A stretch of DNA of 64,000 bases, from assembly GCA_964574995.1 (NCBI GenBank), contig CAZNPF010000007.1, positions 3,689-67,688 on the forward strand, in the 5' to 3' direction. Position numbers and translations under genes: made by a program. This DNA comes from an uncultured Pseudomonadales bacterium. GTDB taxonomy: Bacteria; Pseudomonadota; Gammaproteobacteria; Pseudomonadales; JADFDG01. Under the pieces are notes generated by a model. That model did not search any database. It saw only the letters and a program-made list of their open reading frames with translations, and was not told the DNA's origin. Below are positions 6,355 to 21,858 of this stretch, one piece after another; position 1 is the first letter of the stretch; the number at the start of each line of letters is the position of its first letter.

Positions 6355-7809
6355 TCAGCTATCGCGTGTCACCAGCATTCGTACTTCTGTCATATCGGCA
6401 ATGGCGCTCGAGATGCCTTCGCGGCCAATACCAGAATCTTTCACGCCGCCATAAGGCATGTGATCCATGCGGAAACTTGGGATATCACCCACTACCACAC
6501 CGCCCACATCCAATTCTTTCCACACTTGCGTGGCGCGCAAACGGTCACGGGTAAACACGCCCGCCTGTAAGCCGTAACGTGATGCGTTGACACGCGCAAT
6601 CGCGTCCTCGAACGAACGGAATTTCTCCAACACGCAAGCCGGCCCAAATACTTCGCCGTCACAAATCTGTTCGCCCTGCGGCACATTTTCCAGAATCGTC
6701 GGGGCGACCAGCAAGCCTTGTCGCTCACCGCCGCAGAGCACCGTCGCACCGTTGCTGCGCGCCGACTCAATCCACGATTGAATGCGCTGCGCTTCTTTTT
6801 CGCTAATCACCGGCCCGCAGAATGTTTTTTCATCACGCGGATCGCCGGTACGTAAGGTTTTGGTTTGCGCGACAAGACGGTCGCGGAATTCGTTGTAACG
6901 GCTTTCATGCACAAAGATTCGCTGCACGCTGATGCAGCTCTGTCCGCTCTGATAAAACGCGCCGAATACGCAACGATCCACGGCGAAGCCGATGTCGGCC
7001 GTCTCATCGACAATCACGGCGGCGTTGCCGCCCAATTCCAGCGTGACGCGTTTGCGGCCGGCACGCGCCTTCATGTCCCAGCCGACGGCATCAGAGCCGG
7101 TAAAACTGAGCAATTTCAGGCGATCGTCTGTGACCAGCACATCAGCTGCCGCGCGCTCGGACGGCAAAATGGAAAACGCGCCTTCCGGCAAACCCGTTTC
7201 AGCCAGTACTTCGCCAATGATCAGCGCACCCAACGGCGTCAACGAGGCCGGTTTCAAGACAAATGGGCAGCCCGCCGCGATTGCAGGTGCCACTTTATGC
7301 GCCACCAAATTGAGCGGAAAATTGAACGGCGTGATGAAACCGCAAGCACCGACCGGAACCCGCATCCACATCCCGCTGTAACCTTCGCCACGGGCGCTGA
7401 TATCCATGGGAATGATTTCACCCTTGATGCGGGTGGCTTCTTCTGCCGCAATGGCAAACGTCTCGATCAAGCGCGTCACTTCCACGCGTGAATCGCGGAT
7501 CGGTTTGCCGGCTTCCAGACACAGCGCCAGCGCCAATTCTTCGCGACGCTCCTCAAAACGCTGCACGCAATAACGCAATACATCACGACGACGCCAGGCC
7601 GGCAACTTGCGCATCGCTTCTTCGGCATGCACCGCAGCCGTCACAGCCTGCGTCACCAATGGTGCCGTCGCCACACAAACTTCGGCGCAAGATTCGCCAC
7701 GGTATTTGTCGATGACCGGCATCGTTTCGGCCGTCATCAACGGGCGATTGGCAAAAAATAAGGGCCGCGCCACAGAATTCATATCGTCCGTCATGAGGTT
7801 CCCGTTCAT
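6355..7809 (-). CDS. NAD(P)-dependent aldehyde dehydrogenase
   Basis: ITPFNFP, LKPAS, FTGS, LELGGN, GQSCIS (catalytic Cys), GEVFGP, YGGVKDSGIGREG. Confidence 0.95.
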   Translation of the reverse strand: MNGNLMTDDMNSVARPLFFANRPLMTAETMPVIDKYRGESCAEVCVATAPLVTQAVTAAVHAEEAMRKLPAWRRRDVLRYCVQRFEERREELALALCLEAGKPIRDSRVEVTRLIETFAIAAEEATRIKGEIIPMDISARGEGYSGMWMRVPVGACGFITPFNFPLNLVAHKVAPAIAAGCPFVLKPASLTPLGALIIGEVLAETGLPEGAFSILPSERAAADVLVTDDRLKLLSFTGSDAVGWDMKARAGRKRVTLELGGNAAVIVDETADIGFAVDRCVFGAFYQSGQSCISVQRIFVHESRYNEFRDRLVAQTKTLRTGDPRDEKTFCGPVISEKEAQRIQSWIESARSNGATVLCGGERQGLLVAPTILENVPQGEQICDGEVFGPACVLEKFRSFEDAIARVNASRYGLQAGVFTRDRLRATQVWKELDVGGVVVGDIPSFRMDHMPYGGVKDSGIGREGISSAIADMTEVRMLVTRDS

Positions 7810-7880
7810 GTCGATTTACGCGTCACGATGAATCGTCGATCCACCAAAAAACACAGTTAAAAAATTATTCACTCGATCAT

Positions 7881-9038
7881 TCATTTTCCATTCAATCGGC
7901 GTGCATAAATCGCACGCGCATCCGCCAGCGCAACCTCGCGCGGATTATTCACCAGCAAGCGTTGCTGGCGCAGCGCATCCTCGGCGAGACGATCTAGGTC
8001 TGCCTCGGTAATGCCGTAACTCGCCAGCCGGGTATCTACGCCCAGATCTGCGATCAGCGTATCCAGCCGCGCGATGAGGTAATCCGCCGCAGACGCATCA
8101 CTGCTGTTAGCCGGTGCGCCCAGCATACGTCCTAATTCAGCGTACTGAGTCAGTGCCGCATCTCGGTTGAAACGCAGCACTTCGGCCAGCACGATCGCAT
8201 TCGATAAACCATGCGGCAGGTGAAAAATTCCACCCAGCGGATACGCCAGTGCATGCACCGCCGCCACGGGTGCATTGGCAAATGCAATGCCGGCAAAACA
8301 CGCACCGAGCAGCATGTTTTGCCGCGCATCCAAGTTACGGCCATCGTTGAATGCCGTGCGGATATTGTTGTCGAGCAATTGCAGTGCGCGACGCGCGTAA
8401 TCGTCGGACAACACGTTTTTGCGAATCTTTGATGTGTACGCTTCGATGGCATGCACCATCGCATCGATGCCGGTATGCGCGGTGACTGTCGGCGGCAGAC
8501 TCAAGGTCAAACTAGCATCCAATAGCGCGAGATCTGGCATCAGCACGGTCGACACCACGCCACCTTTGGTTTCATCGGCGAGCGTCACAATGGCAATCGG
8601 CGTCACTTCCGAACCCGTGCCGGCCGTGGTCGGTATCAACACCAACGGCAAGCGACGACCTTTGGTTTGCTCCACGCCGATGATCTGCCGCAGCGTTTCC
8701 GACGAATCCGCGAAATACGCCGTGAGTTTTGCCACATCCATGGCGCTGCCGCCGCCGATGCCCACCACCATCTGCGCACCGAATTCGCGCGCACGTGTAT
8801 GCGCCGCCGCCACGATGTGTTCGCCGGGGTCCGGCGCAACGTCTGCAAATAAAGCATGTTCGAGTTTTGCGGCAGCCAGCGCATCCAACAGCGGTTGAAC
8901 AAGACCGGCAGCGACCACGCCTGGGTCTGCCACGATCAAGACACGCAGAATGCGACGACGCAGTGCAAATTCAGCCGCGCGTCCGGCAGCGCCCGGCGCA
9001 CAAATCAATTGCGGAACGGTGACAAACGAAAATTCCAT
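7881..9038 (-). CDS. Iron-containing alcohol dehydrogenase (type III ADH)
   Basis: GGGSAMD, IPTTAGTGSEVT, GIDAMVHAIE, HALAYPLG, PHG metal ligands; start MEFSF at 9038 (ORF-track extension to 9437 not credible). Confidence 0.92.
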   Translation of the reverse strand: MEFSFVTVPQLICAPGAAGRAAEFALRRRILRVLIVADPGVVAAGLVQPLLDALAAAKLEHALFADVAPDPGEHIVAAAHTRAREFGAQMVVGIGGGSAMDVAKLTAYFADSSETLRQIIGVEQTKGRRLPLVLIPTTAGTGSEVTPIAIVTLADETKGGVVSTVLMPDLALLDASLTLSLPPTVTAHTGIDAMVHAIEAYTSKIRKNVLSDDYARRALQLLDNNIRTAFNDGRNLDARQNMLLGACFAGIAFANAPVAAVHALAYPLGGIFHLPHGLSNAIVLAEVLRFNRDAALTQYAELGRMLGAPANSSDASAADYLIARLDTLIADLGVDTRLASYGITEADLDRLAEDALRQQRLLVNNPREVALADARAIYARRLNGK

Positions 9039-9257
9039 GACCACGGTATCCGGGAGCAGCCGCCGCACCCTGTGGTCGGACTGCCTTCTTGTTGTCGTTA
9101 TCCATTCGGACAGGCGGCGGGCCTCGCGAAAAAACCGCCGCAAACCAGCCCCGTCATCGTGAGGGCTGGCCAGCGGAACGGCAATGCCTCCGCGCGCCCT
9201 CACACGCCCTGCGCAGCCTCGGGCAGCCCGTCTTTTACCGGCCCCCTGCGCACACGC

Positions 9258-9289
9258 TTGACTCTGGAGTATGGTCCAGAGTGCAGAGT
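9258..9289 (+). promoter_or_regulatory. MerR-family metal-responsive promoter/operator (ZntR-type, 20-bp spacer)
   Basis: -35 TTGACT (9258-9263), dyad ACTCTGGA-N6-TCCAGAGT (9261-9282), candidate -10 CAGAGT after 20 bp, directly upstream of a MerR gene. Confidence 0.85.
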
Positions 9290-9325
9290 GGCCCCACATG
9301 AGATGAATGACCGTGATAAACGACC

Positions 9326-9793
9326 ATGAAGACGCATGAGCAACCCGTGACCATCGGCGTGGCAGCCAAAGCCGCCGGCGTGGCGATCGACACCGTACGT
9401 TATTACGAACGGCAAGGCCTGCTGGCGGATGCGCCACGCACGGAAGGCGGATTCCGCTTATTCAGCACCCGCGACATCGAGCGGCTGCAATTTATCCGCA
9501 AGGCCAAGGCACTCGGTTTCACTTTAGACGACATCGCCGAGCTGCTACGCCTGCAAGACGGCGGCGGCACGCGGGCACGCGTCCGGGAACGCGCTCAAGC
9601 GCGCATCGCCGAACTCGACCGAAAAATCCAGGCCTTCACCGCAATCCGTGATGCGCTCGCGACACTGGAGCACTGCTGCAGCGGCCAAGGGCCCGTCGCC
9701 GGCTGCCCCATCATGGAAGGCGTCCGTTCGCTCGATTTGGAAAACCCCGAATTGGAAAATGCGGCACCACCGCTGACACGGAGGGCTCGCTGA
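9326..9793 (+). CDS. Heavy-metal-responsive MerR-family transcriptional regulator
   Basis: TIGVAAKAAGVAIDTVRYYERQGLL wHTH, LQFIRKAKALGFTL, C-terminal CCSGQGPVAGCPI metal loop. Confidence 0.93.
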   Translation: MKTHEQPVTIGVAAKAAGVAIDTVRYYERQGLLADAPRTEGGFRLFSTRDIERLQFIRKAKALGFTLDDIAELLRLQDGGGTRARVRERAQARIAELDRKIQAFTAIRDALATLEHCCSGQGPVAGCPIMEGVRSLDLENPELENAAPPLTRRAR

Positions 9794-11163
9794 TGCGTGT
9801 TTCGTCTCGCCATTTTTTGTGGCGCACGTTTTCACTGCGCGTCGCTACACGGCCACGGGTGCTGCTGCCTCTGCTGCTGTCGCTGTTAGTGGCCGGCTGC
9901 GCCAGCCCCGGTCGTGAAAGCGCCGAACTGCGTCATGAAACCGCCGAGCGTTTGGCCGTCACCTTGCCGGCACATGCTGACGACGCAGCGGAAATTCGCG
10001 CGCGTGTCGACGAATTACTCGCCAATGAACTCGGCCGCGAACAAGCCGTGATCATCGCGCTGCTCGATAGCCCCTCCCTCGCCCGCCGTTACGCGCAGTT
10101 GGAAGTATCCGCCGCCGAACGCGTACGCGCCGCACGGCCCCCTAATCCGTCGTTGTCATTCGCACGGTTAAAACGCGGCAACGAAACCGAAACCGAGCGT
10201 GGGATCTCAATCGATCTGATCGGGCTGTTGGCCTGGCCACTCGAGCGTAGCGCCGCGAACCGTCAATTCACTGCGCAGCGTCAAGCCAGCTTGCGTGAAG
10301 CGCTGCAACTGGCGCGCGAAGTACGTCACGCGTGGACGGAAGCCGTCGCCGCCAGCATGGAAGCCGATCACGCGCAGCGCGTGTTGGCGTTAGTCGATAC
10401 GAACCGCGAATACGCACAGCGATTAGCCGCAGCGGGCAACACGCCCGCACTGGACGCCGACCGTGCCGAAAGCCAGCACGCGCAGGCAGAAAATGCGCGC
10501 ATGCAGGCGGAAGCAAACGCCGTCACCGCGCGGGAAAAACTTGCGCTGCTGTTGGGCGTTGCCGACAGCAGCCGGCTGCAGTTGCCCGTACATCTACCGG
10601 CGCTGCCGGAATCGCTGCCGTCCGCGCCCAGCTATGAACAGCAGGCCATCGATCAACGCATCGATGTACAAGCCGCGGTGCGACAGGCTGACGCCACCGC
10701 CAAGGCCTACAAACTGCAGCGCGTCACGCGTTTTGTGAACGTGTTGGATGTGGGCTATCAATCCAATTTATCCAACCAGCAAGCGACGCAAAGCGGTTTT
10801 GACGTGACGCTAGAACTGCCACTGTTTGATTTCGGCAGCGCCGCCAGTAACGAGGCGCGTGCGCGCTACGAGGAATCGCTGGCAGCGGTGCGCGAAGCGG
10901 CCACAAAGGCACGCAGCGAGACACGAGGCGCATGGGCCAGCACCAAAGCCGCTTGGGAAAATGCCGCGCGCTACCGCGACCGCGTGCTGCCGCTGCAGCA
11001 AAAAATCACCGAAGAAGTGCTGCTGCGATTCAACGGCATGTTGGTGGGCCCCGCCGAGGTGCTGGAACAAGCACAAGTGCAGGCAGACGCAGCACTGCAG
11101 GCGCAACAGGCGCTGCGGAATTTCTGGATCGCCGAGGCAGACCTCGCCTCGGTACTGCAATGA
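9793..11163 (+). CDS. TolC/outer-membrane-factor lipoprotein of a copper-resistance operon
   Basis: Lipobox LVAGC, PPNPSLSF and LELPLFDFG OMF motifs; TGATG coupling to MerR. Confidence 0.85.
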   Translation: MRVSSRHFLWRTFSLRVATRPRVLLPLLLSLLVAGCASPGRESAELRHETAERLAVTLPAHADDAAEIRARVDELLANELGREQAVIIALLDSPSLARRYAQLEVSAAERVRAARPPNPSLSFARLKRGNETETERGISIDLIGLLAWPLERSAANRQFTAQRQASLREALQLAREVRHAWTEAVAASMEADHAQRVLALVDTNREYAQRLAAAGNTPALDADRAESQHAQAENARMQAEANAVTAREKLALLLGVADSSRLQLPVHLPALPESLPSAPSYEQQAIDQRIDVQAAVRQADATAKAYKLQRVTRFVNVLDVGYQSNLSNQQATQSGFDVTLELPLFDFGSAASNEARARYEESLAAVREAATKARSETRGAWASTKAAWENAARYRDRVLPLQQKITEEVLLRFNGMLVGPAEVLEQAQVQADAALQAQQALRNFWIAEADLASVLQ

Positions 11164-11177
11164 CGGAGTCAAAAATC

Positions 11178-12600
11178 ATGACTGAACCTTCATCACCGTC
11201 ATCCGCAGACCGGCACAGCCGCTCGCACGGCCCTTCACACACTAACCGCAGTCGCCGTCAATTTCTCGGGGCTGCCGGCGCACTGGCGCTGGGTGCAGGT
11301 TTGGTGTCGCGAGCGGCAGCGGCGGCTATTCCGGAAGCAGCAGACGTGAGCGATGCGCGCACGCAAATCACGCCGCGTGATGGCCGCCCGTACAACCCGG
11401 TGGTCACACTCAACGGCTGGACATTGCCGCACCGCATGAAAAATGGCGTCAAAGAATTTCATCTGGTTGCTGAACCGGTGCGCCGCGAAATCGCGCCGGG
11501 CATGGTCGCCAATTTATGGGGTTACAACGGCCAGAGCCCGGGGCCGACAATCGAAGCGGTCGAAGGCGATCGCGTGCGTATTTTCGTCACCAATAAATTA
11601 CCCGAGCACACCGCCGTGCACTGGCACGGTTTGTTGCTACCCAACGGCATGGACGGCGTTGGCGGTTTGACGCAGCCGCAGATTCCCGTCGGTAAAACTT
11701 TTGTCTACGAATTCGTGCTGAAAAAATCCGGCACTTTTATGTATCACCCCCATGCCGACGAAATGGTGCAGATGGCGATGGGCATGATGGGTCTGTTCAT
11801 CGTGCATCCCAAAAACCCAAAGCTGATGCGCGTCGACCGCGATTACGCTTTTTTACTCAACGCGTTCGATATCGAGCCTGGTGCGGCCACGCCGCAGGTC
11901 AACACCATGACCGAATTCAATGTGTGGGCGTGGAACTCGCGGGTATTTCCCGGCATCGATCCGCTGGTGGCGCGCACCGGCGACAAAGTGCGCATTCGCG
12001 TCGGCAATCTCACCATGACCAATCACCCGATCCACCTGCACGGTCATGTGTTTGAAGTCACCGGCACCGACGGCGGCTGGGTACCCAAAAGCGCACGCTG
12101 GCCGGAGGTCACAACGGATATCGCCGTCGGCCAAATGCGCGCTGTCGAATTCATCGCCGACGCACCGGGCGACTGGGCATTCCACTGTCACAAGTCGCAT
12201 CACACCATGAACGCCATGGGGCATGGTGTGCCCAATTTGATTGGTGTCGAGCAACGCGACCTCGGCAAAAAAATGCGCGCGCTAATTCCGGGCTATCTCA
12301 TGCCGATGGGCAGCGACGGCATGGCAGAAATGGGCGAAATGCACATGCCATTGCCAGAAAATACTTTGCCGATGATGGCCGGCAGCGGCCCGTTCGGCCC
12401 GCTGGAAATGGGCGGCATGTTCAGCGTTCTCAAAGTGCGTAATGAGCAAAAACCCGGTGATTATTCTGACCCGGGCTGGTATCAACACCCGGCGGACAGC
12501 GTCGCCCAGGAATGGGATGGCGAAGCACCGGCACTTACCCGCGCCCCCAGTGCGCCGGCCAACGGGCATGAAGTCCAGGTCGTAAAACCCGGAGATCACG

Positions 12601-12614
<14 letters not shown>
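11178..12614 (+). CDS. Multicopper oxidase (Tat-exported)
   Basis: SRRQFL twin-arginine signal; [25 protein letters not shown] copper motifs; Met-rich tail; start at 11178. Confidence 0.93.
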
Positions 12615-14985
<2,371 letters not shown>

Positions 14986-15089
14986 GTACTAAAAGGGAAT
15001 CTCCCCGCATCTAAACGCAGGACCGGCTTGCGTACTGACTACACCGAGACACGAGATGAGCAAATCAGGAATTGCGCTCTAGCCGAAAC

Positions 15090-15527
15090 TCACGGTAGCA
15101 GCAGATTCCGGAATGGCTTGCGCGATTTCCAGCGATAGGTGCTGAAGTCGCGCTGATCGGTAGAAAGGATGTCGCCGCAACCTTGCGCTTCAGCGAGCAG
15201 AACCAGCGAGGCATCGGCGAGGTCCATCGGCAGCGCGCGGTATTTATGCATCAGCGCCTCGATATGCGCCACTTGCGGCATGTTGATATCGAACAGATCG
15301 AAATGTCCTTGGCGCCACTGCGCAATAAATGCCTGCTGCACGGCGGCACCACCGCGACGCAACAGAACGTGGCAAGTCTCGGTGAGCACCGGCCAAGTCG
15401 TGACCAGACGACGCTCTAGGGTTCCCAGCACATCCACGGCGCGCGCGTGGTGCGCGTCACCTCGATTGCACAGCGCAATCCAGAAACCGGTGTCAGCGAT
15501 GACCGGTAAGTTTGCGTTCGATGGCAT
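15090..15527 (-). CDS. vapC: PIN-domain toxin (VapC family), TA module 1
   Basis: VIADTGFW, VLTETCH, MDLADASLV, ILSTDQRDF acidic PIN residues; overlaps upstream small ORF. Confidence 0.9.
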   Translation of the reverse strand: MPSNANLPVIADTGFWIALCNRGDAHHARAVDVLGTLERRLVTTWPVLTETCHVLLRRGGAAVQQAFIAQWRQGHFDLFDINMPQVAHIEALMHKYRALPMDLADASLVLLAEAQGCGDILSTDQRDFSTYRWKSRKPFRNLLLP

Positions 15528-15756
15528 GGTCAAACTCGTCCTTATAGTTCGTCGAGATATCCGCCGGGCCATCAAACAGGCCGGACAGGGCCAGCAAGCG
15601 CCGGTTACCGTCGTTGGCTCGCGCCAATTGCTGCTCGTAATAGCAGGCCAGCGCGGCCGAAAGCACGTCGGTCATGTTCCGGCCGGTGATTTTCTGCAGA
15701 CTGAGGAGTTTCCCGCTACTGGCGTCATCCAACCGGGCGCTGATGCGAAGTCCCAT
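15493..15756 (-). CDS. Ribbon-helix-helix (CopG-like) antitoxin, TA module 1
   Basis: LRISARLDD beta strand plus helices; GLFDGPADISTNYK tail; GGAGG RBS before ATG 15756. Confidence 0.8.
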   Translation of the reverse strand: MGLRISARLDDASSGKLLSLQKITGRNMTDVLSAALACYYEQQLARANDGNRRLLALSGLFDGPADISTNYKDEFDHAIERKLTGHR

Positions 15757-15792
15757 GGGCAACCTCCGTGGGGTTGCAGTGTCATTGGGCAC

Positions 15793-15822
15793 AGCATACG
15801 ACTGTCAGACAGCGTCAGACAA
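15793..15822 (-). promoter_or_regulatory. TA1 promoter with overlapping operator repeats
   Basis: TTGTCT-N18-TATGCT; GTCAGACA direct repeat (15804-15811, 15814-15821); CTGTC-A-GACAG dyad. Confidence 0.6.
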
Positions 15823-15936
15823 GATCAAAAAAGACATGAGACGACTCCGGTCATCGACGGGTGTCCATTCCATGACAGCATCCATCCAGAGCGGTAGCGG
15901 CAAATAACCCGCCGGCTTGTACGCCGCCAGCGAAAC

Positions 15937-15966
15937 AAAAAAGGCCGGCATAACGCCGGCCTTTTT
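15937..15966 (-). terminator. Rho-independent terminator after thiolase
   Basis: AAAAAGGCCGGC-ataac-GCCGGCCTTTTT. Confidence 0.85.
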
Positions 15967-15986
15967 ATTCATTCTCTTCGCAACGA

Positions 15987-17174
15987 TTACAAACAGCTCT
16001 CGATGATCGTCGCGTTGGCCGTCCCCAAGCCTTCGCAAATCGACAGCAAACCGTATTTACCTTTGCGACGGCGCAATTCATACGCCAGCGTGCCGATCAA
16101 TTTGGCACCAGTTGCGCCCAGCGGATGGCCCAGCGCTTGCGCGCCGCCGTTCACGTTCAGCTTGCTCACGTCTGCACCCAGCGCTTTCGCCCACGCCAGC
16201 GGCACTGAGCCAAACGCTTCGTTCACCTCGTAAATTTCCATGTCAGAAATTTTGAGGCCGGCTTGCTTCAGAATTTTCTGCGTCGCCGGAATCGGACCTT
16301 CCAACACCATGGTGGGGTCCGAACCGACTACGCTCATGGCGTGAATGCGCGCCAGCGGTTTCAGGCCAGCAGCCTTCATCGCTTTTTCGCTCATCATCAG
16401 CACTGCCGCCGAGCCATCACAGATTTGCGAGGCCGTACCGGCCGTAATCACGCCGCCCGGCACCAGCGGTTGCAGCGCGGCGGTGGCTTCCAGCGTGGCA
16501 TTGAAACGCAAGCCTTCGTCCATTTCATGACGGACGATTTTTTTCACGCCGTCCAGCTCCAGTTCGACATCGAACTTGACCAACTCCTCATTGAAACGGC
16601 CTGCTTCATACGCGGCCTTGCCTTTCATGTGCGATTGCCAAGCAAAGTGATCCAACTCAGCGCGGCTAACGCCGTATTTCTTCGCCATTTTTTCGGCGCC
16701 GTCGAATTGGCTGAATTCGCAGCCCGGATAACGCTTGCGGATCTGCACGGAATCAAACGGGTTTCCCATGCCGGCTTTTTCTGCGACGTCTTTTGCCGAG
16801 AGGATCGGCACTTGGCTCATCACTTCGACGCCACCGGCGATGATCACGTCTTGAGTGCCGGACATGATCGCTTGCGCGGCAAAGTGCACCGATTGCTGTG
16901 AAGATCCGCACTGACGGTCGATCGACACACCCGGCACGGATTCCGGCAAACGCGACGCCAGAATCGACGTACGCGCAATATTGAACGTTTGCGGACCAAT
17001 CTGACTGACGCAACCGTAGATCACGTCATCCACGCTGGCCGGGTCGATTTTCGTACGCTCCAGCAGCGCATCGATCACCTTCGCACCCAGATCGGCCGGA
17101 TGGATTTTCGAAAGACGACCGTTACGGCGGCCACCCGGCGTGCGAACCGCGTCAACGATGTAGGCGTACGTCAT
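15987..17174 (-). CDS. Acetyl-CoA acyltransferase (thiolase)
   Basis: VDAVRTPGG, DRQCGSS, YEVNEAF, GHPLGATG, LSICEGLG; AAGGAG RBS. Confidence 0.95.
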   Translation of the reverse strand: MTYAYIVDAVRTPGGRRNGRLSKIHPADLGAKVIDALLERTKIDPASVDDVIYGCVSQIGPQTFNIARTSILASRLPESVPGVSIDRQCGSSQQSVHFAAQAIMSGTQDVIIAGGVEVMSQVPILSAKDVAEKAGMGNPFDSVQIRKRYPGCEFSQFDGAEKMAKKYGVSRAELDHFAWQSHMKGKAAYEAGRFNEELVKFDVELELDGVKKIVRHEMDEGLRFNATLEATAALQPLVPGGVITAGTASQICDGSAAVLMMSEKAMKAAGLKPLARIHAMSVVGSDPTMVLEGPIPATQKILKQAGLKISDMEIYEVNEAFGSVPLAWAKALGADVSKLNVNGGAQALGHPLGATGAKLIGTLAYELRRRKGKYGLLSICEGLGTANATIIESCL

Positions 17175-17216
17175 GACAAACACTCCTTTTGCTGAATCAC
17201 AAAATTAGTAAGACAT

Positions 17217-17343
17217 TGAGAAACGAAACGGGCGGATAGCCTGCAAGGCGGAGGCCGGCGAGCAATCGCAGCGTACTTTTACGTCCGCGAGGATTACATG
17301 CCGGCCGACAACGCCGCAGACCGCCACCCGGTGCGTTTCCTCA
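17217..17343. repeat. ~127-bp fold-back element with imperfect terminal inverted repeats (MITE-like)
   Basis: Ends TGAGAAACGAAACGGGCGG / revcomp TGAGGAAACGCACCGGGTGGCGG; nested arms CTGC/GCAG, GGCG/CGCC, GGCCGGC/GCCGGCC, AATC/GATT, CGTA/TACG; right end includes the upstream gene's stop codon; single copy in window. Confidence 0.45.
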
Positions 17344-18852
17344 CTCCTGCTTGATGCCGGCCAAGCGCTTGGCGTACCACTTCTTGCGCTCCACATCCAT
17401 TTGCCGCGCAATTTGAATACGTTGCGCTTGCGGTGAACCTGCGCCGTGCATGGATTCCGTCAAATAACCCACGGCATTGCGGCCCAGCGTCATATTTTCG
17501 ATCAAGCGCAACATGCGCACCCGCGTTTCGGTGGGAACGCTGCTCACCCCTTTCAGGTATTTTTCGAGAATCGGGCCGGTTTCGCCGTGCTTGAAATCTT
17601 GCTCGGACGGCAACGTCACCATGATGCCGCCGGCAATATCCTGCGCAAGACGCGCAATTTCATACGGGAAGCGCGTGACGTTGTGCTTGCAGACGTTGGC
17701 CAGCATCGCGTCGTTCATATAAATGCCAGAAGCCATTTTGGTGGCTGAATACGAGGAGGCAATCGATGACGAATAAATGGTTTCGTTGAGGTGCGTCATC
17801 TCCACCAATTTGTCTTTGATGTGCGAAACCTTTTCCACGCCGTTGTATTCGGCGACGGCAGCGGCCGCGCCAACCATCACGTCGCCCAAACCGGTTTTGC
17901 ACACATAAGACGCGCGGTGGTAGGCGGTGAAACGCGCCACCATTTCTTGCGCGAATTCGTATTCACCGTCCATGAACACGTGCTCATACGGAATAAATAC
18001 GTGATCGAACACGGTAAGCGTTTCCTGGCCGCCGTATTCGGCGTTGCCGACGTCGATGTTGCCGCCTTCTAGCGCACGCGTGTCGCAGCTCTGACGCCCA
18101 TAAATGTAGGTAATGCCTTCGGCATCAGCCGGCACGGCGCCCACCACGGCCCAGTCTTTGTCTTCTGCGCCGAGATTCATGGTCGGCATCACGAAGATCC
18201 AGTGCGAATTCAAGCCGCCGGTCATGTGCGCTTTGGCACCGGTGACGAAGATGCCTTTGTCATTGCGGCCAGTGATGTGCAAGAACAGATCCGGATCTGC
18301 CTGCTCGTGCGGGCGCTTGGAGCGATCCCCTTTCGGGTCGGTCATGCCAGCACCGATGATGATGTTGTTGGCTTGCGCTTTCTTCAGGAAGTCGATGAAA
18401 CGTGTGTGGTACGGCGTGCCATGTTTTTGATCGATGTCGTAGGTAATCGAATGCATCACGCTGATGGTGTCGAGGCCGGCGCAACGCTGAAAGCAGGTGC
18501 CAGTCAGTTGACCCATGCGGCGTTGCATCAAGTTTTTCTGCACCAGTTCTTGTGGCGATTCGACGATGTGCAGAAAACGGTTCACGCGCGCATTGATCAG
18601 CGGCGAATGGGCGGTGGCAAGTTCCGGATCTTCGATGGCGAGATCGTATGTTTGACGCAGCGCGTTCATCGATGGCCGAATCAGCGGGTTGTCGACCGGG
18701 TTCGGCTCTTCCTGACCAAACAAAAACAATTTCAGCGGCCGGCCACGCAACGAATTGAGATAGTCCTCACCGGTCTTGATCGGCTTGAAGCGCGACCAGC
18801 GCTCGGCGGCGGTTTCCAGTTTGCGGACGGGCAACGGTTGCTTGGCGTTCAT
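17341..18852 (-). CDS. 4-hydroxybutyryl-CoA dehydratase/vinylacetyl-CoA isomerase homolog (AbfD-like, HpaB superfamily; [4Fe-4S]+FAD)
   Basis: TCFQRCAGLD (two cluster Cys), YHRASYVCK (His/Cys ligands), MTDPKGDRS, ESMHGAGSPQAQR. Confidence 0.82.
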   Translation of the reverse strand: MNAKQPLPVRKLETAAERWSRFKPIKTGEDYLNSLRGRPLKLFLFGQEEPNPVDNPLIRPSMNALRQTYDLAIEDPELATAHSPLINARVNRFLHIVESPQELVQKNLMQRRMGQLTGTCFQRCAGLDTISVMHSITYDIDQKHGTPYHTRFIDFLKKAQANNIIIGAGMTDPKGDRSKRPHEQADPDLFLHITGRNDKGIFVTGAKAHMTGGLNSHWIFVMPTMNLGAEDKDWAVVGAVPADAEGITYIYGRQSCDTRALEGGNIDVGNAEYGGQETLTVFDHVFIPYEHVFMDGEYEFAQEMVARFTAYHRASYVCKTGLGDVMVGAAAAVAEYNGVEKVSHIKDKLVEMTHLNETIYSSSIASSYSATKMASGIYMNDAMLANVCKHNVTRFPYEIARLAQDIAGGIMVTLPSEQDFKHGETGPILEKYLKGVSSVPTETRVRMLRLIENMTLGRNAVGYLTESMHGAGSPQAQRIQIARQMDVERKKWYAKRLAGIKQE

Positions 18853-19035
18853 GGCAAAGCCCTCGGGTAGCACAGCAAGAAAATGGGGGCGTCACCTAGC
18901 GGGCGGGCCACCAAGTGACTGATAAGTCAGAGCGAGCATGCTAGTCGCTCGCCCCGGCCGGGCCAAGGATGAGCGGGCAGTAAACCCGGGGCCGAGATGA
19001 CTTACGTCAGCCCCAGCCCGGCCCGCAAAAAATCC

Positions 19036-20181
19036 TTACAACGCAGCGATCGCCCCGGCAGCAAGCAAGCGCTCCACGTCACCGGCGGCAAAGCCGTAAT
19101 CAGCCAGCACGGCGTGGGTGTCCGTGCCGACGCGGGTCATCGGTTTGACGGCATTGCTGTGGGTGGCCGTGCGCGAAAAACGCGGGGCCGGCGACGGATG
19201 CACCACCTTGCCCACTGTCTGGTATGCGCCGCGCGCCACCGCGTGTTCGTGCTGCGGCGCTTCATCGAGATCCAACACCGGTGCGAAACAAACATCGCTG
19301 CCTTCCATGATGTCGCACCACTCTTCGCGCGTTTTCGTTTTGAACACGCCAGCAATTTTTACTTTCAGTTCCGGCCAGCGGTTGATATCGAACTGATGAC
19401 CAAAATCCGCTTGCGACAAGCCAGCCAATTCCATCAGCAGCGCGTAGAACTGTGGTTCGATGGAACCAATCGAAATATATTTTCCGTCTTTCGTTTCATA
19501 GACGTCGTAAAAATGCGCGCCGGTATCCAGCAAATGCGTGCCGCGTTGATTGCCAAACAGGCCATTGGCTTTCAATCCGTAGAACATCGCCATCAGCGCC
19601 GACGCGCCGTCGACCATCGCCGCATCCACCACTTGGCCTTTGCCGCTCTTTTGCGCTTCCAGCAGCGCGCACACGATGCCAAAAGCCATCAACATACCAC
19701 CACCGCCAAAATCACCGACCAAATTAAGCGGCGGCATCGGTTTTTCACCACGACGACCAATGGCATGTAGCGCACCGGTGAGCGCGATGTAATTGATGTC
19801 GTGACCTGCTGCCAGCGCCATCGGCCCTTGTTGGCCCCAACCGGTCATGCGGCCATACACCAGCTTCGGATTTGCCGCCATGCACTGCTCGGGGCCCACG
19901 CCCAAGCGCTCGGCCACGCCGGGCCGATAGCCTTCAAAAATTGCGTCAGCTTTTTCGCAGAGTTTTAGTACCGTTTTTACGCCGTCCGGGTGCTTGAGAT
20001 TCACCGCGACCGCGCGACGGTTACGAAACAAAATGTCGTGGCCGCCTTCGCTCGACGGGTTGCCGCCGGGGCGATCGATGCGGATCACGTCGGCACCCAT
20101 ATCGCCCAGCATCATGCCGCAGAAGGGACCCGGGCCAATGCCCGAGAGTTCGATGATGCGGAATCCGGATAGCGGGCCCAT
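19036..20181 (-). CDS. CaiB/BaiF family protein, alpha-methylacyl-CoA racemase-like
   Basis: GIGPGPF, EGYRPGVAERLG, GHDINY and LNLVGDFGGG (racemase His/Asp pair); GGAGG RBS. Confidence 0.88.
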   Translation of the reverse strand: MGPLSGFRIIELSGIGPGPFCGMMLGDMGADVIRIDRPGGNPSSEGGHDILFRNRRAVAVNLKHPDGVKTVLKLCEKADAIFEGYRPGVAERLGVGPEQCMAANPKLVYGRMTGWGQQGPMALAAGHDINYIALTGALHAIGRRGEKPMPPLNLVGDFGGGGMLMAFGIVCALLEAQKSGKGQVVDAAMVDGASALMAMFYGLKANGLFGNQRGTHLLDTGAHFYDVYETKDGKYISIGSIEPQFYALLMELAGLSQADFGHQFDINRWPELKVKIAGVFKTKTREEWCDIMEGSDVCFAPVLDLDEAPQHEHAVARGAYQTVGKVVHPSPAPRFSRTATHSNAVKPMTRVGTDTHAVLADYGFAAGDVERLLAAGAIAAL

Positions 20182-20366
20182 GTATACCTCCACGATGCGA
20201 AATAACCGGCGCTATGCCGGCAACTGTGTCACGACTGAGAACCGAGGCACGCCGGTCATGACATGCGGATGACGGCGCGCAGCGAGGCCGTTACTGTAGT
20301 GCCCCTGACTGCCCGGCACTACTGCCTGCACGGGCGCCCACGCCTTCCCCAGCCCCGGTATCCGCC

Positions 20367-21071
20367 ATGAGCCAGCCCGCTATCACCCGCCAATCCACGC
20401 CCGCCGCCATCAGCTTGGAGCAGGCCATCCTCGAACGCCGCTCGGTGCGCGGCTTTCTGCCGGACCCGGTGCCGCAAGACGTGCTGGAAAAAGTGTTTAC
20501 GCTGGCGCAGCACGCGCCCAGCAATTGCAACATCCAGCCATGGTTTTCGTGGATTGCTTCCGGGGCCACACGTGATGAGATGCGCACACGCATGATGGAG
20601 CGCGTGACCAAGGGCGGAATGCCAACACCGGATTTCGATCACCTGCCAAATTTTCAAGGCGTATACCGCCAACGTCAGGTCGATTGTGCGGTAGAGCTGT
20701 ACAACCACATGGGCATCGCGCGCGACGACAAACTCGGCCGCATGAAAGCCACGCTGCGTAATTTCGAATTATTCGATGCGCCGCACGTCGTGTTCATCGG
20801 CATGCGTCGCGAATTCGGCGTCACGTTTGCGCTGGATGTCGGCATGTACATCCAAACCTTGATGCTCACCATGGCGGCACACGGAATCAGTTCCTGCGCA
20901 CAAGGCTCGATGCGTTACTACCCGGAAGACGTGCGCGAAGTCTTTGGCATCGATAAAGACATCGGCATCGTGCTGGGCATTTCCTTCGGCTACGAAGACA
21001 CCTCGGTCGCCGCCAATAAAACCCGCATCGGTCGCGCGCCGCTGAGCGAGAACGTCGTTTTCAAAAACTGA
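20367..21071 (+). CDS. Nitroreductase family flavoprotein
   Basis: RRSVRGF, APSNCNIQPW, FDAP, LDVGMYIQTLML, GISFGY. Confidence 0.9.
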   Translation: MSQPAITRQSTPAAISLEQAILERRSVRGFLPDPVPQDVLEKVFTLAQHAPSNCNIQPWFSWIASGATRDEMRTRMMERVTKGGMPTPDFDHLPNFQGVYRQRQVDCAVELYNHMGIARDDKLGRMKATLRNFELFDAPHVVFIGMRREFGVTFALDVGMYIQTLMLTMAAHGISSCAQGSMRYYPEDVREVFGIDKDIGIVLGISFGYEDTSVAANKTRIGRAPLSENVVFKN

Positions 21072-21177
21072 TGGCTCTTGTAGTGGGCGCTATTGCGCCG
21101 ACCGCCCCCACCCGGAATGGACGAAATCCGTACCACTCCTGCGTGGCGGGCTATTGCCCCTTCCTCGCCCTCAAGGC

Positions 21178-21199
21178 ACCATAATGGTTCCATTTTGGT
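21178..21199 (+). promoter_or_regulatory. Candidate antitoxin operator overlapping -10 (CATAAT), TA2
   Basis: Tandem 11-bp near-dyads ACCATAATGGT / TCCATTTTGGT 15 bp upstream of antitoxin ATG. Confidence 0.55.
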
Positions 21200-21214
21200 A
21201 TCTCGGAGTCATCC

Positions 21215-21460
21215 ATGGGCACGACCATCACCCTCAAGAACATCCCGGACGACATCTACGACAGCCTGAAGGCCTCCGCCGAGGCACACCATCGCAGCCT
21301 CAACAGCGAAGCGATTGCCTGCCTAGAGCGTGTGCTGATGCCTACCCGGATCAGCAACGAAGTCCACATGGCCCTAGCCGCCCAGATGCGCGACGAACTC
21401 AAGAGCAAGAAGTTCGACGTCGCTGAAATCAAGGCCGCCATCAGCGAAGGGCGACCATGA
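21215..21460 (+). CDS. FitA/Arc-like ribbon-helix-helix antitoxin, TA module 2
   Basis: TITLKNIPDDIYDSLKASAEAHHRSLNSE; ATGA overlap with toxin. Confidence 0.88.
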   Translation: MGTTITLKNIPDDIYDSLKASAEAHHRSLNSEAIACLERVLMPTRISNEVHMALAAQMRDELKSKKFDVAEIKAAISEGRP

Positions 21461-21858
21461 TCGTCGTCGACACCAACATCTTGGTGTATTTCTATCTGCC
21501 CACCGATCTAACCCCGCAAGTAGAAAAGTTGCGCGAATTACACCCGCGCTGGATCGCGCCTCGCTTGTGGAGAAGCGAGTTACGCAGCGTACTCACACTT
21601 TATATGCGCAAAGGGGCGCTCACACTTGAGCAAGCTTTACGACTCCAGTCGCACGCCGAAAATCTTATGGCTGATTGCGAGTTCGATCTGGCATCGCACG
21701 ATGTGTTAACGCTCGCAAAGGAAAGTCAGTGCTCCGCATACGACTGTGAATTTGTCGCCCTAGCAAAACATTTCAATGCGAAGCTAATTACCTCGGACAA
21801 GCAGGTGCTCAAGGCATTTCCGAACATTGCAATGACGACCGCGCAAGCACTGACCTGA
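21457..21858 (+). CDS. vapC: PIN-domain toxin (VapC/FitB family), TA module 2
   Basis: MIVVDTNIL, WRSE, SAYDCEFVALA, LITSDK. Confidence 0.9.
   Translation: MIVVDTNILVYFYLPTDLTPQVEKLRELHPRWIAPRLWRSELRSVLTLYMRKGALTLEQALRLQSHAENLMADCEFDLASHDVLTLAKESQCSAYDCEFVALAKHFNAKLITSDKQVLKAFPNIAMTTAQALT

Follow-up and report, generated by a model that had tools for sequence, protein, structure and literature searches.

A cluster of three predicted acyl-CoA genes

We analysed a 64,000-nt stretch of DNA from an uncultured Pseudomonadales bacterium (assembly GCA_964574995.1, contig CAZNPF010000007.1, positions 3,689 to 67,688; the whole stretch is called the window below), in which three minus-strand genes encode a predicted alpha-methylacyl-coenzyme A (CoA) racemase (AMACR)-type protein, a [4Fe-4S]/flavin adenine dinucleotide (FAD) protein of the 4-hydroxybutyryl-CoA dehydratase (4HBD) family and a thiolase. 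The open reading frames (ORFs) span 19036-20193, 17341-18873 and 15987-17183 in the window's ORF list; alignment with relatives and the placement of ribosome-binding sites put the probable ATG starts at 20181, 18852 and 17174 (Table 1). A model reading of the letters, the original prediction, had delimited the cluster as 15987-20181, which runs exactly from the thiolase stop to the racemase ATG. The motifs it quoted (GHDINY, NLVGD, CFQRC, HRASYVC and ESMHGAGSP) are all present in the translations, and its three gene identities are borne out by Pfam and by matches to solved structures.

The racemase matches the Pfam family CoA_transf_3 (7.9e-81) and aligns with the M. tuberculosis racemase MCR (1x74; E 7e-121) and with Far (2G04; 2e-109), the His of GHDINY and the Asp of NLVGD falling on the MCR catalytic pair (His126/Asp156). 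The best match to a true CoA-transferase reached only 4e-43, and all transferase equivalog models scored far below their cut-offs. By its fold, its His/Asp pair and its nearest relatives this family III protein is, as far as sequence can assign it, an AMACR-type racemase. The genome has no second gene of AMACR type, its remaining family III paralogues being 39% and 32% identical.

The dehydratase matches HpaB_N (5.8e-82) and HpaB (3.7e-72) in Pfam and is 66% identical to the Nitrosopumilus maritimus 4HBD (6vjr; E 5e-225) and 53% identical to Clostridium aminobutyricum AbfD (1u8v; E 5.5e-167); its relation to the Thaumarchaeota is drawn from the PDB alignments and one representative sequence. 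Foldseek gave template modelling (TM) scores of 0.78 to 6vjr and 0.77 to 1u8v for a predicted model of moderate quality (predicted local distance difference test, pLDDT, 78). The cluster ligands C-x3-C (CFQRC) and H-x5-C (HRASYVC) align with those of both structures, and the [4Fe-4S] ligands are invariant among 24 relatives. Equivalents of C. aminobutyricum T190, E257, Y296 and E455 are likewise kept (MTDPKGDR, GGQE, YHRASY and TESMHGAGSP). The roles of the 4HBD catalytic residues are listed in a preprint (bioRxiv 10.1101/2020.02.05.935528), which ascribes the oxygen tolerance of the N. maritimus enzyme to T102, R441 and N442 closing tunnel 1 and to L77 closing tunnel 2. All four tunnel-closing residues (T102, L77, R441 and N442) are present in the dehydratase, within GTC, NRFLHI and LGRNAVGY, and they are nearly universal across its subfamily relatives.

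Identity to HpaB-family monooxygenases is ~20%, and the corresponding model TIGR02309 gave 145 bits against a cut-off of 480. With a score so far below the cut-off and the Fe-S ligands in place, we class the protein as no HpaB-type flavin monooxygenase, as the original prediction had held, and assign it by its residues to the 4HBD family, as a member of the oxygen-tolerant type. The original prediction had given H-x6-C as the clostridial spacing, which the alignments support; the H-x5-C that it contrasted with this is the ordinary spacing of the N. maritimus type. Its description of AbfD as oxygen-sensitive is right for the clostridial enzyme and does not extend to the family, since the N. maritimus 4HBD is oxygen-tolerant.

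The thiolase contains Thiolase_N and Thiolase_C, and its catalytic residues can be read in the translation as Cys (DRQCGSS), His (GHPLGATG) and Cys (ICEG). Among solved structures it is closest to T. thermophilus 1ulq and M. tuberculosis FadA5, with degradative thiolases matched at ~1e-80. It reached none of the named equivalogs (acetoacetyl-CoA thiolase, FadA, FadA5, PcaF): the best model, NF005077, gave 569.5 bits against a cut-off of 590, and all others fell well below theirs.

Table 1. Features of the cluster and its spacers in window coordinates (MFE, minimum free energy).
Feature	Position	Strand	Details
Predicted AMACR-type 2-methylacyl-CoA racemase	19036..20181	-	381 aa from ATG; ORF opens at GTG 20193
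Structured 162-nt spacer, racemase/dehydratase	18874..19035	-	MFE -75.9 kcal/mol, z -3.8
Predicted [4Fe-4S]/FAD 4HBD-family dehydratase	17341..18852	-	503 aa; HpaB_N + HpaB
Spacer, dehydratase/thiolase	17184..17340	-	MFE -69.6 kcal/mol, z -5.9
Predicted degradative-type 3-ketoacyl-CoA thiolase	15987..17174	-	395 aa from ATG; AAGGAG upstream
Bidirectional intrinsic terminator-like hairpin	15938..15966	.	12-bp stem, 7 GC pairs, A and T runs flanking

A separate proteobacterial subfamily of the 4HBD family

Scanning one genome per species for relatives of the dehydratase yielded 371, of which the best 80 are 69-95% identical to it and come from Alcanivoracaceae, Sphingomonadales, Halieaceae, Moraxellaceae-like metagenome-assembled genomes (MAGs), Ketobacteraceae, Nevskiaceae, Alcaligenaceae and others. 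All 80 carry CFQRC[A/T]GLD[T/A/S]xSV, AKAHMTGG and YHRASYVCK, and many also have GAGMTDPKGDR. Both characterised enzymes read CFQRCVGMDA..N, AKAHQTG and GAMTD at these sites; the window dehydratase reads CAGLDTISV, AKAHMTGG and AGMTD, and thus lacks their flanking residues. The changes are V to A/T, M to L and N to S beside the second Cys ligand, GA to AG before the FAD-contacting Thr, and Q to M after AKAH. The canonical flanking motifs occur as well in a homologue with 60% identity (in G008, a genome of the same order) and in the nearest 50%-identity cluster representatives. The context of such canonical-type bacterial 4HBDs gave no clue to a pathway, either in G008 (locus L109) or for the representative P0124 (L121).

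In the tree the subfamily is monophyletic (Shimodaira-Hasegawa-like approximate likelihood ratio test, SH-aLRT, 100) and sister (99) to the canonical H-x5-C group. Because the residues flanking the active site differ consistently from those of both characterised enzymes, we place the dehydratase, on motifs and phylogeny, in a separate, uncharacterised proteobacterial subfamily of the 4HBD family. This agrees with the original prediction, which had counted against itself the case of a canonical AbfD; in sequence type, at least, the protein is not one. A protein search at E <= 1e-100 found at least 7998 clusters (90% identity) of dehydratase homologues, whose annotation is 4HBD in some cases and '4-hydroxyphenylacetate 3-hydroxylase family' in the others. 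One dehydratase 92% identical to that of the window lies on a 3.8-kb contig (L003) binned as Bacteroidota (a Pedobacter MAG); it is near-identical to the copy in a Moraxellaceae MAG (L009), and its placement is therefore probably a binning error.

Linkage and co-occurrence of the three genes

Adjacency of an AMACR gene was scored, at loci with enough flanking sequence, as a homologue of >=45% identity within 8 kb of the dehydratase, and was found at 33 of the 69 scorable loci; GHDINY and NLVGD were confirmed in these homologues wherever checked. On the dehydratase tree adjacency requires 12 changes, at least six of them forced by well-supported branches, and the linkage spans gamma-, beta- and alphaproteobacteria. 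With 1-3 AMACR genes per 3-5 Mb genome we estimate chance adjacency at ~1%. The juxtaposition of the three genes is far beyond chance.

A second line of evidence comes from a sample of 151 genomes of the same order as the window genome. The subfamily dehydratase is present in seven of these (G000, G075, G118, G056, G077, G119 and G093), all of which also have an AMACR, as do 67 of the 151 overall. Six of the seven, and none of the 144 others, have a close orthologue of the window thiolase (E <= 1e-150; 61-95% identity); counted by family, the three thiolase-positive families all fall inside the four dehydratase-positive ones, out of ~53, although kinship among the genomes inflates any such test. 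Because the three genes are unlinked in G077, G119 and G056, this co-occurrence is a phyletic signal rather than synteny. An unlinked thiolase orthologue, 73% identical, is also present in Alcanivorax profundi. In the racemase tree, the window's family and that of the Alcanivoracaceae form a supported clade of 23 sequences (SH-aLRT 95), and all 23 come from dehydratase-positive genomes, two unlinked cases included. Beyond the order sample, 27 further subfamily-positive genomes lack an adjacent AMACR copy; a search at E <= 1e-80 found one elsewhere in 22 of them (21 of 26 without G166, locus L040, an unpublished genome on which alone no claim depends). The claim that the genes are co-conserved is upheld by the recurrent linkage and co-occurrence; the partnership is not obligatory, since no AMACR was found at that threshold in the remaining five.

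Fuller operons occur in other lineages. Caenimonas sp. SL110 and a JGI contig show the order AraC, CofC, AMACR, LivK-type ABC transporter, dehydratase, PaaK-like CoA ligase, luciferase-like oxidoreductase, thiolase, enoyl-CoA hydratase, FO synthase and Fno, and in Panacagrimonas perspica the same core lies within a complete coenzyme F420 biosynthesis cluster. The fullest operons thus comprise uptake, ligase, racemase, dehydratase, hydratase, a possible F420-dependent dehydrogenase and thiolase. In a Xanthobacteraceae genome the row runs dehydratase, AMACR, ABC transporter and ligase, and Parapedomonas groups a ligase, two acyl-CoA dehydrogenases, a thiolase and AraC with the dehydratase. Between the window thiolase and those of the beta- and gammaproteobacterial operons identity is only 37-39%, which implies that this function was recruited independently, on more than one occasion.

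At P. perspica (L107:4378-17533) and at L104 and L106, the dehydratase, luciferase-like oxidoreductase, thiolase and enoyl-CoA hydratase genes stand amid CofC, CofGH, Fno, CofE and CofD, with AMACR and AraC adjoining. By gene content these loci are candidates for an F420-dependent acyl-CoA pathway in Proteobacteria. We rejected F420 dependence for the window genome, where CofE and CofH were not found, so that the F420 link is confined to other lineages.

The unlinked racemase of G077 (L123:5900-8107) is directly preceded by an AraC regulator whose domain pair, Arabinose_bd and HTH_18, matches that of the regulators adjoining the dehydratase elsewhere, which hints at a possible shared regulon. 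In Alcanivorax (L026:4692-9521; also L029-L037, L043 and L048), msrA and msrB lie on the same strand as the genes that they separate, and a neutral-ceramidase-like gene and a 200-aa protein without a family match lie upstream of the racemase. A repair role for Msr, given the subfamily's Gln-to-Met change in AKAHMTGG, is only a guess.

A candidate aerobic route for gamma-hydroxyacyl-CoAs

The recurrence of the trio suggests that fatty-acid breakdown has a side branch not yet described. Judged from gene content, the most likely use of such a branch would be an aerobic route for gamma-hydroxyacyl-CoAs, probably alpha-methyl ones. We propose that the three genes form a functional module of aerobic acyl-CoA catabolism in which the dehydratase would replace acyl-CoA dehydrogenase for chains bearing a gamma-hydroxyl, and give this reading a probability of roughly 0.45. 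The dehydratase is read as the enoyl-forming step because its conserved partners make up a beta-oxidation turn without an acyl-CoA dehydrogenase.

The proposed module would act either on 4-hydroxybutyryl-CoA or on an alpha-methyl derivative of it, for example 4-hydroxy-2-methylbutyryl-CoA, and the partners make the latter more probable. The 4HBD mechanism takes off one specific C2 proton, and for that reason only one C2 epimer would react, which would explain the racemase partner: the AMACR-type enzyme may interconvert the two C2 epimers and so make both usable. The dehydratase would then turn the 4-hydroxyacyl-CoA into a 2-enoyl-CoA by the known ketyl-radical mechanism of 4HBD, presumably in this direction; a housekeeping FadB, for which FadA-FadB genes lie elsewhere in the genome, would carry out hydration and oxidation of the enoyl-CoA, and the dedicated thiolase would cleave the 3-keto(-2-methyl)acyl-CoA to acetyl-CoA plus acetyl- or propionyl-CoA. 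A tiglyl-CoA product would thus give propionyl-CoA and acetyl-CoA through a thiolase that accepts 2-methyl-3-ketoacyl-CoA.

The gamma-hydroxy stubs may be what remains of omega-hydroxylated straight or isoprenoid chains after shortening by beta-oxidation. Beta-oxidation of omega-hydroxyacyl-CoA ends at 4-hydroxybutyryl-CoA (PMC7795663). By our own bookkeeping, 16-hydroxy-2,6,10,14-tetramethylhexadecanoyl-CoA, from phytol or phytane oxidised at both ends, would come down to 4-hydroxy-2-methylbutyryl-CoA. The genome (2.7 Mb, scored 100% complete) holds seven FA_desaturase/AlkB-family and two P450 genes, for whose subtype NCBIfam was uninformative, and its gene content suggests a lipid or hydrocarbon specialist. 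It is aerobic, because it has two COX1-family heme-copper oxidase genes, which suits the facultative or aerobic gene set of the original prediction. With that prediction we infer methyl-branched or gamma-hydroxy acyl-CoA substrates; its observation is confirmed and its interpretation partly supported.

Several findings weigh against the proposed module. Since the dehydratase is 66% identical to a characterised 4HBD and has all of its catalytic residues, plain 4-hydroxybutyryl-CoA may be the substrate. The thiolase is near the dehydratase at only 12 of 64 scorable loci, and the commonest dehydratase neighbour is an AraC-family regulator, which at many loci stands alone. AMACR is common in the order even without the dehydratase, and of the five positive genomes in which none was found, two are isolates (Sphingobium sp. 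Sx8-8 and Sphingomonas sp. YR710). An EAL gene splits racemase and dehydratase in the closest congeners (as in G075 at L001), and in Alcanivorax, where the order is ceramidase-like gene, unknown gene, racemase, msrA, msrB and dehydratase, the msrA-msrB pair does so. Related genomes, finally, are not independent observations.

Alternative explanations

Plain 4-hydroxybutyryl-CoA as the substrate is a serious alternative. The dehydratase would then be a canonical 4HBD yielding crotonyl-CoA and, in the end, two acetyl-CoA; the thiolase would be an acetoacetyl-CoA thiolase and the racemase a general helper sharing a lipid regulon. Free 4-hydroxybutyrate, 4-aminobutyrate (GABA), 1,4-butanediol or even-chain omega-hydroxy fatty acids could supply such a route. 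Besides its 66% identity to a characterised enzyme and full set of catalytic residues, the breakdown of omega-hydroxyacyl-CoAs to 4-hydroxybutyryl-CoA speaks for it, in a genome with seven FA_desaturase/AlkB-family and two P450 genes, as do the wide occurrence of AMACR without the dehydratase and its absence from some positive genomes. One AcetylCoA_hydro-family gene elsewhere in the genome could be added, but its product matched no NCBIfam model. Against this stand the subfamily substitutions beside the cluster and flavin sites where the two characterised 4HBDs agree, AMACR adjacency on at least six independent branches, and the 80 loci, in which no 4-hydroxybutyrate CoA-transferase, gabT or gabD is conserved beside the dehydratase. 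We regard this explanation as possible, if on balance unlikely.

A bolder form of the proposed module holds that the subfamily, which we call 'AGLD', is a new radical dehydratase for alpha-methyl-gamma-hydroxyacyl-CoAs: AMACR would provide the epimer, tiglyl-CoA would be made and the thiolase would release propionyl- and acetyl-CoA. So specific a claim is doubtful. If true, it would give aerobic beta-oxidation an Fe-S radical step that tolerates oxygen and had gone unrecognised, and that some lineages would couple to an F420-dependent dehydrogenase.

The physiological activity might instead be an oxygen-insensitive Delta3-Delta2 isomerisation of vinylacetyl-CoA or 2-methyl-3-enoyl-CoA to 2-enoyl-CoA in the breakdown of terminal alkenes or unsaturated isoprenoids. 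4HBD is a bifunctional dehydratase/vinylacetyl-CoA isomerase, as the names of 6vjr and 1u8v state and as is well established, the context is one of beta-oxidation genes in hydrocarbon degraders, and a chiral 2-methyl-3-enoyl-CoA would account for the racemase. That the whole subfamily conserves the residues needed for dehydration, including the complete cluster site and those that close the tunnels, would be unexpected for isomerisation alone, for which ordinary enoyl-CoA isomerases are available, and we consider this improbable.

Slightly less probable still is an indel block, in which three unrelated genes would travel together and share no pathway. The cluster does sit between a copper-resistance island and two toxin-antitoxin modules, is interrupted by EAL in congeners and has a variable context elsewhere. 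A mere block, however, would not explain why thiolase and racemase co-occur with the dehydratase even when unlinked or why non-orthologous thiolases were recruited beside it in other classes. The congener G028 argues against it too: it retains the Cu-ATPase, the nitroreductase and an EAL orthologue (74% nucleotide identity), but no racemase, dehydratase or thiolase is present anywhere in its genome, nor any remnants of them; the three genes are therefore absent from both sides of one retained gene. In G075 and G118 the order is nitroreductase, racemase, EAL (opposite strand), dehydratase and thiolase, and in the window the same without EAL. Co-transcription as a general feature fails on this opposite-strand gene between racemase and dehydratase in the closest congeners.

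That the racemase-like protein is a family III CoA-transferase activating a free gamma-hydroxy acid, in place of clostridial AbfT, is very improbable: the CoA_transf_3 fold, the retained Asp aligned with the MCR catalytic Asp and the lack of any other activating enzyme adjoining the dehydratase in the window allow it, whereas the very strong racemase similarity (E 7e-121), the racemase-specific His, transferase equivalog scores all far below cut-off and the separate AMP-forming ligases beside the racemase in fuller operons argue against it. An HpaB-type two-component flavin monooxygenase, as the NCBI annotation of relatives and the HpaB fold name in Pfam would have it, can be dismissed on ~20% identity against 66% to 4HBD, on 145 against 480 bits for TIGR02309 and on the presence of all four cluster ligands.

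Surroundings of the cluster

Both intergenic spacers (~160 nt) fold far better than shuffled sequence. That between dehydratase and thiolase forms a long imperfect hairpin beginning at the dehydratase stop codon, and that between racemase and dehydratase is the site where congeners have the opposite-strand EAL gene. No terminator-like site was found between the three genes in either spacer, and no T-tract terminator in 17184-17340; the strong terminator-like hairpin beyond the thiolase closes the three-gene unit. A dispersed MITE or REP origin of the spacers was rejected, each being single copy in the genome.

On one side of the cluster is a copper-resistance island that includes a PIN toxin-antitoxin pair (9793-15822), and on the other a divergent gene of the nitroreductase family (20367-21071). 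The cluster is flanked by two toxin genes with PIN domains (VapC-like), at 15090-15792 on the minus strand and 21215-21858 on the plus strand, each with a small upstream partner ORF. A 242-aa plus-strand ORF (15169-15897) was discarded as a gene, having no Pfam match and being less consistent with the region than the minus-strand PIN toxin and small antitoxin ORFs; it is probably a shadow of the first toxin-antitoxin pair. Within the genus the locus is an indel hotspot (L081 in G028, L082 in G075 and L083 in G118 against window 12000-21500): what varies between Cu-ATPase and nitroreductase is the presence of the three catabolic genes, of EAL and of the toxin-antitoxin modules. The nitroreductase gene, although kept next to the racemase in the clade, was rejected as part of the module since G028 keeps it without the three genes.

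An iron-containing alcohol dehydrogenase (Fe-ADH) and an aldehyde dehydrogenase (6355-9437), considered as possible 4-hydroxybutyrate and succinic semialdehyde dehydrogenases, were set aside as pathway members: their NCBIfam matches are generic and sub-threshold, and the copper island intervenes. At the start of the window lie a hormone-sensitive-lipase-family esterase (2-985) and an NMO/FabK-like flavoprotein (1008-1979), and a cytochrome P450 gene stands just before the window start (contig C7:2181-3590).

Relation to known systems

Each protein belongs to a known family; what is new, as judged by sequence comparison, is an uncharacterised dehydratase subfamily and its apparent partnership with racemase and thiolase. 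The nearest characterised enzyme, N. maritimus 4HBD (Nmar_0207, 6VJR), has the same length and fold, cluster ligands and catalytic Thr, Glu, Tyr and Glu, and the same four tunnel-closing residues, proposed to confer oxygen tolerance. It serves archaeal autotrophic CO2 fixation beside an ADP-forming 4-hydroxybutyrate-CoA synthetase, whereas the window gene belongs to a heterotroph and has a racemase and a thiolase as neighbours; CVGMD..N becomes C[A/T]GLD..S, GAMTD becomes AGMTD and AKAHQ becomes AKAHM, and the two fall in separate clades. C. aminobutyricum AbfD (1U8V) shares the cofactor sites and catalytic residues at 53% identity and differs in being oxygen-sensitive, in its H-x6-C spacing and in its open tunnels (S98, A73, A447, S448).

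In anaerobic GABA fermentation AbfD is paired with the CoA-transferase AbfT. MCR (1X74) and Far (2G04) have the catalytic His/Asp in the same motifs and the same family III CoA-transferase fold as the window racemase, while the racemases of dehydratase-positive Pseudomonadales form a supported clade of their own (SH-aLRT 95); we know of no dehydratase partner described for MCR. The degradative thiolases (1ULQ, FadA5, FadA) share Thiolase_N/Thiolase_C and the Cys-His-Cys residues, and the window thiolase is set apart by falling below all equivalog cut-offs and by a narrow orthologue distribution that follows the dehydratase subfamily. Bacterial LvaABC, which acts on levulinate, and mammalian ACAD10/ACAD11 also make 4-hydroxyacyl-CoAs fit for beta-oxidation. 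They do so by phosphorylation and elimination, with a kinase and an ACAD-like eliminase where the cluster would use a [4Fe-4S]/FAD radical dehydratase, and no such genes were seen beside the cluster. Our literature search found no paper naming both 4-hydroxybutyryl-CoA dehydratase and methylacyl-CoA racemase and none treating the proteobacterial subfamily genes functionally, with nothing relevant for Alcanivorax, F420 or pristane.

Implications

The gene abfD (K14534) is widely used as a metagenome marker of the archaeal hydroxypropionate/hydroxybutyrate cycle (PMC8139981, PMC5780414), and the thousands of proteobacterial homologues annotated as 4HBD or as '4-hydroxyphenylacetate 3-hydroxylase family' can mislead inferences drawn from it. 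To go by paper titles, oxygen-tolerant 4HBDs are sought for 4-hydroxybutyrate polymer engineering and synthetic CO2 fixation, and the bacterial subfamily is an untapped source of them.

The usual view ties 4HBD to strict anaerobes and to CO2 fixation in archaea. Strictly aerobic degraders of hydrocarbons and lipids depart from it in carrying a large monophyletic subfamily of oxygen-tolerant type, whose racemase partnership and co-distributed thiolase give a testable hypothesis for the aerobic disposal of gamma-hydroxy or branched acyl-CoA stubs.

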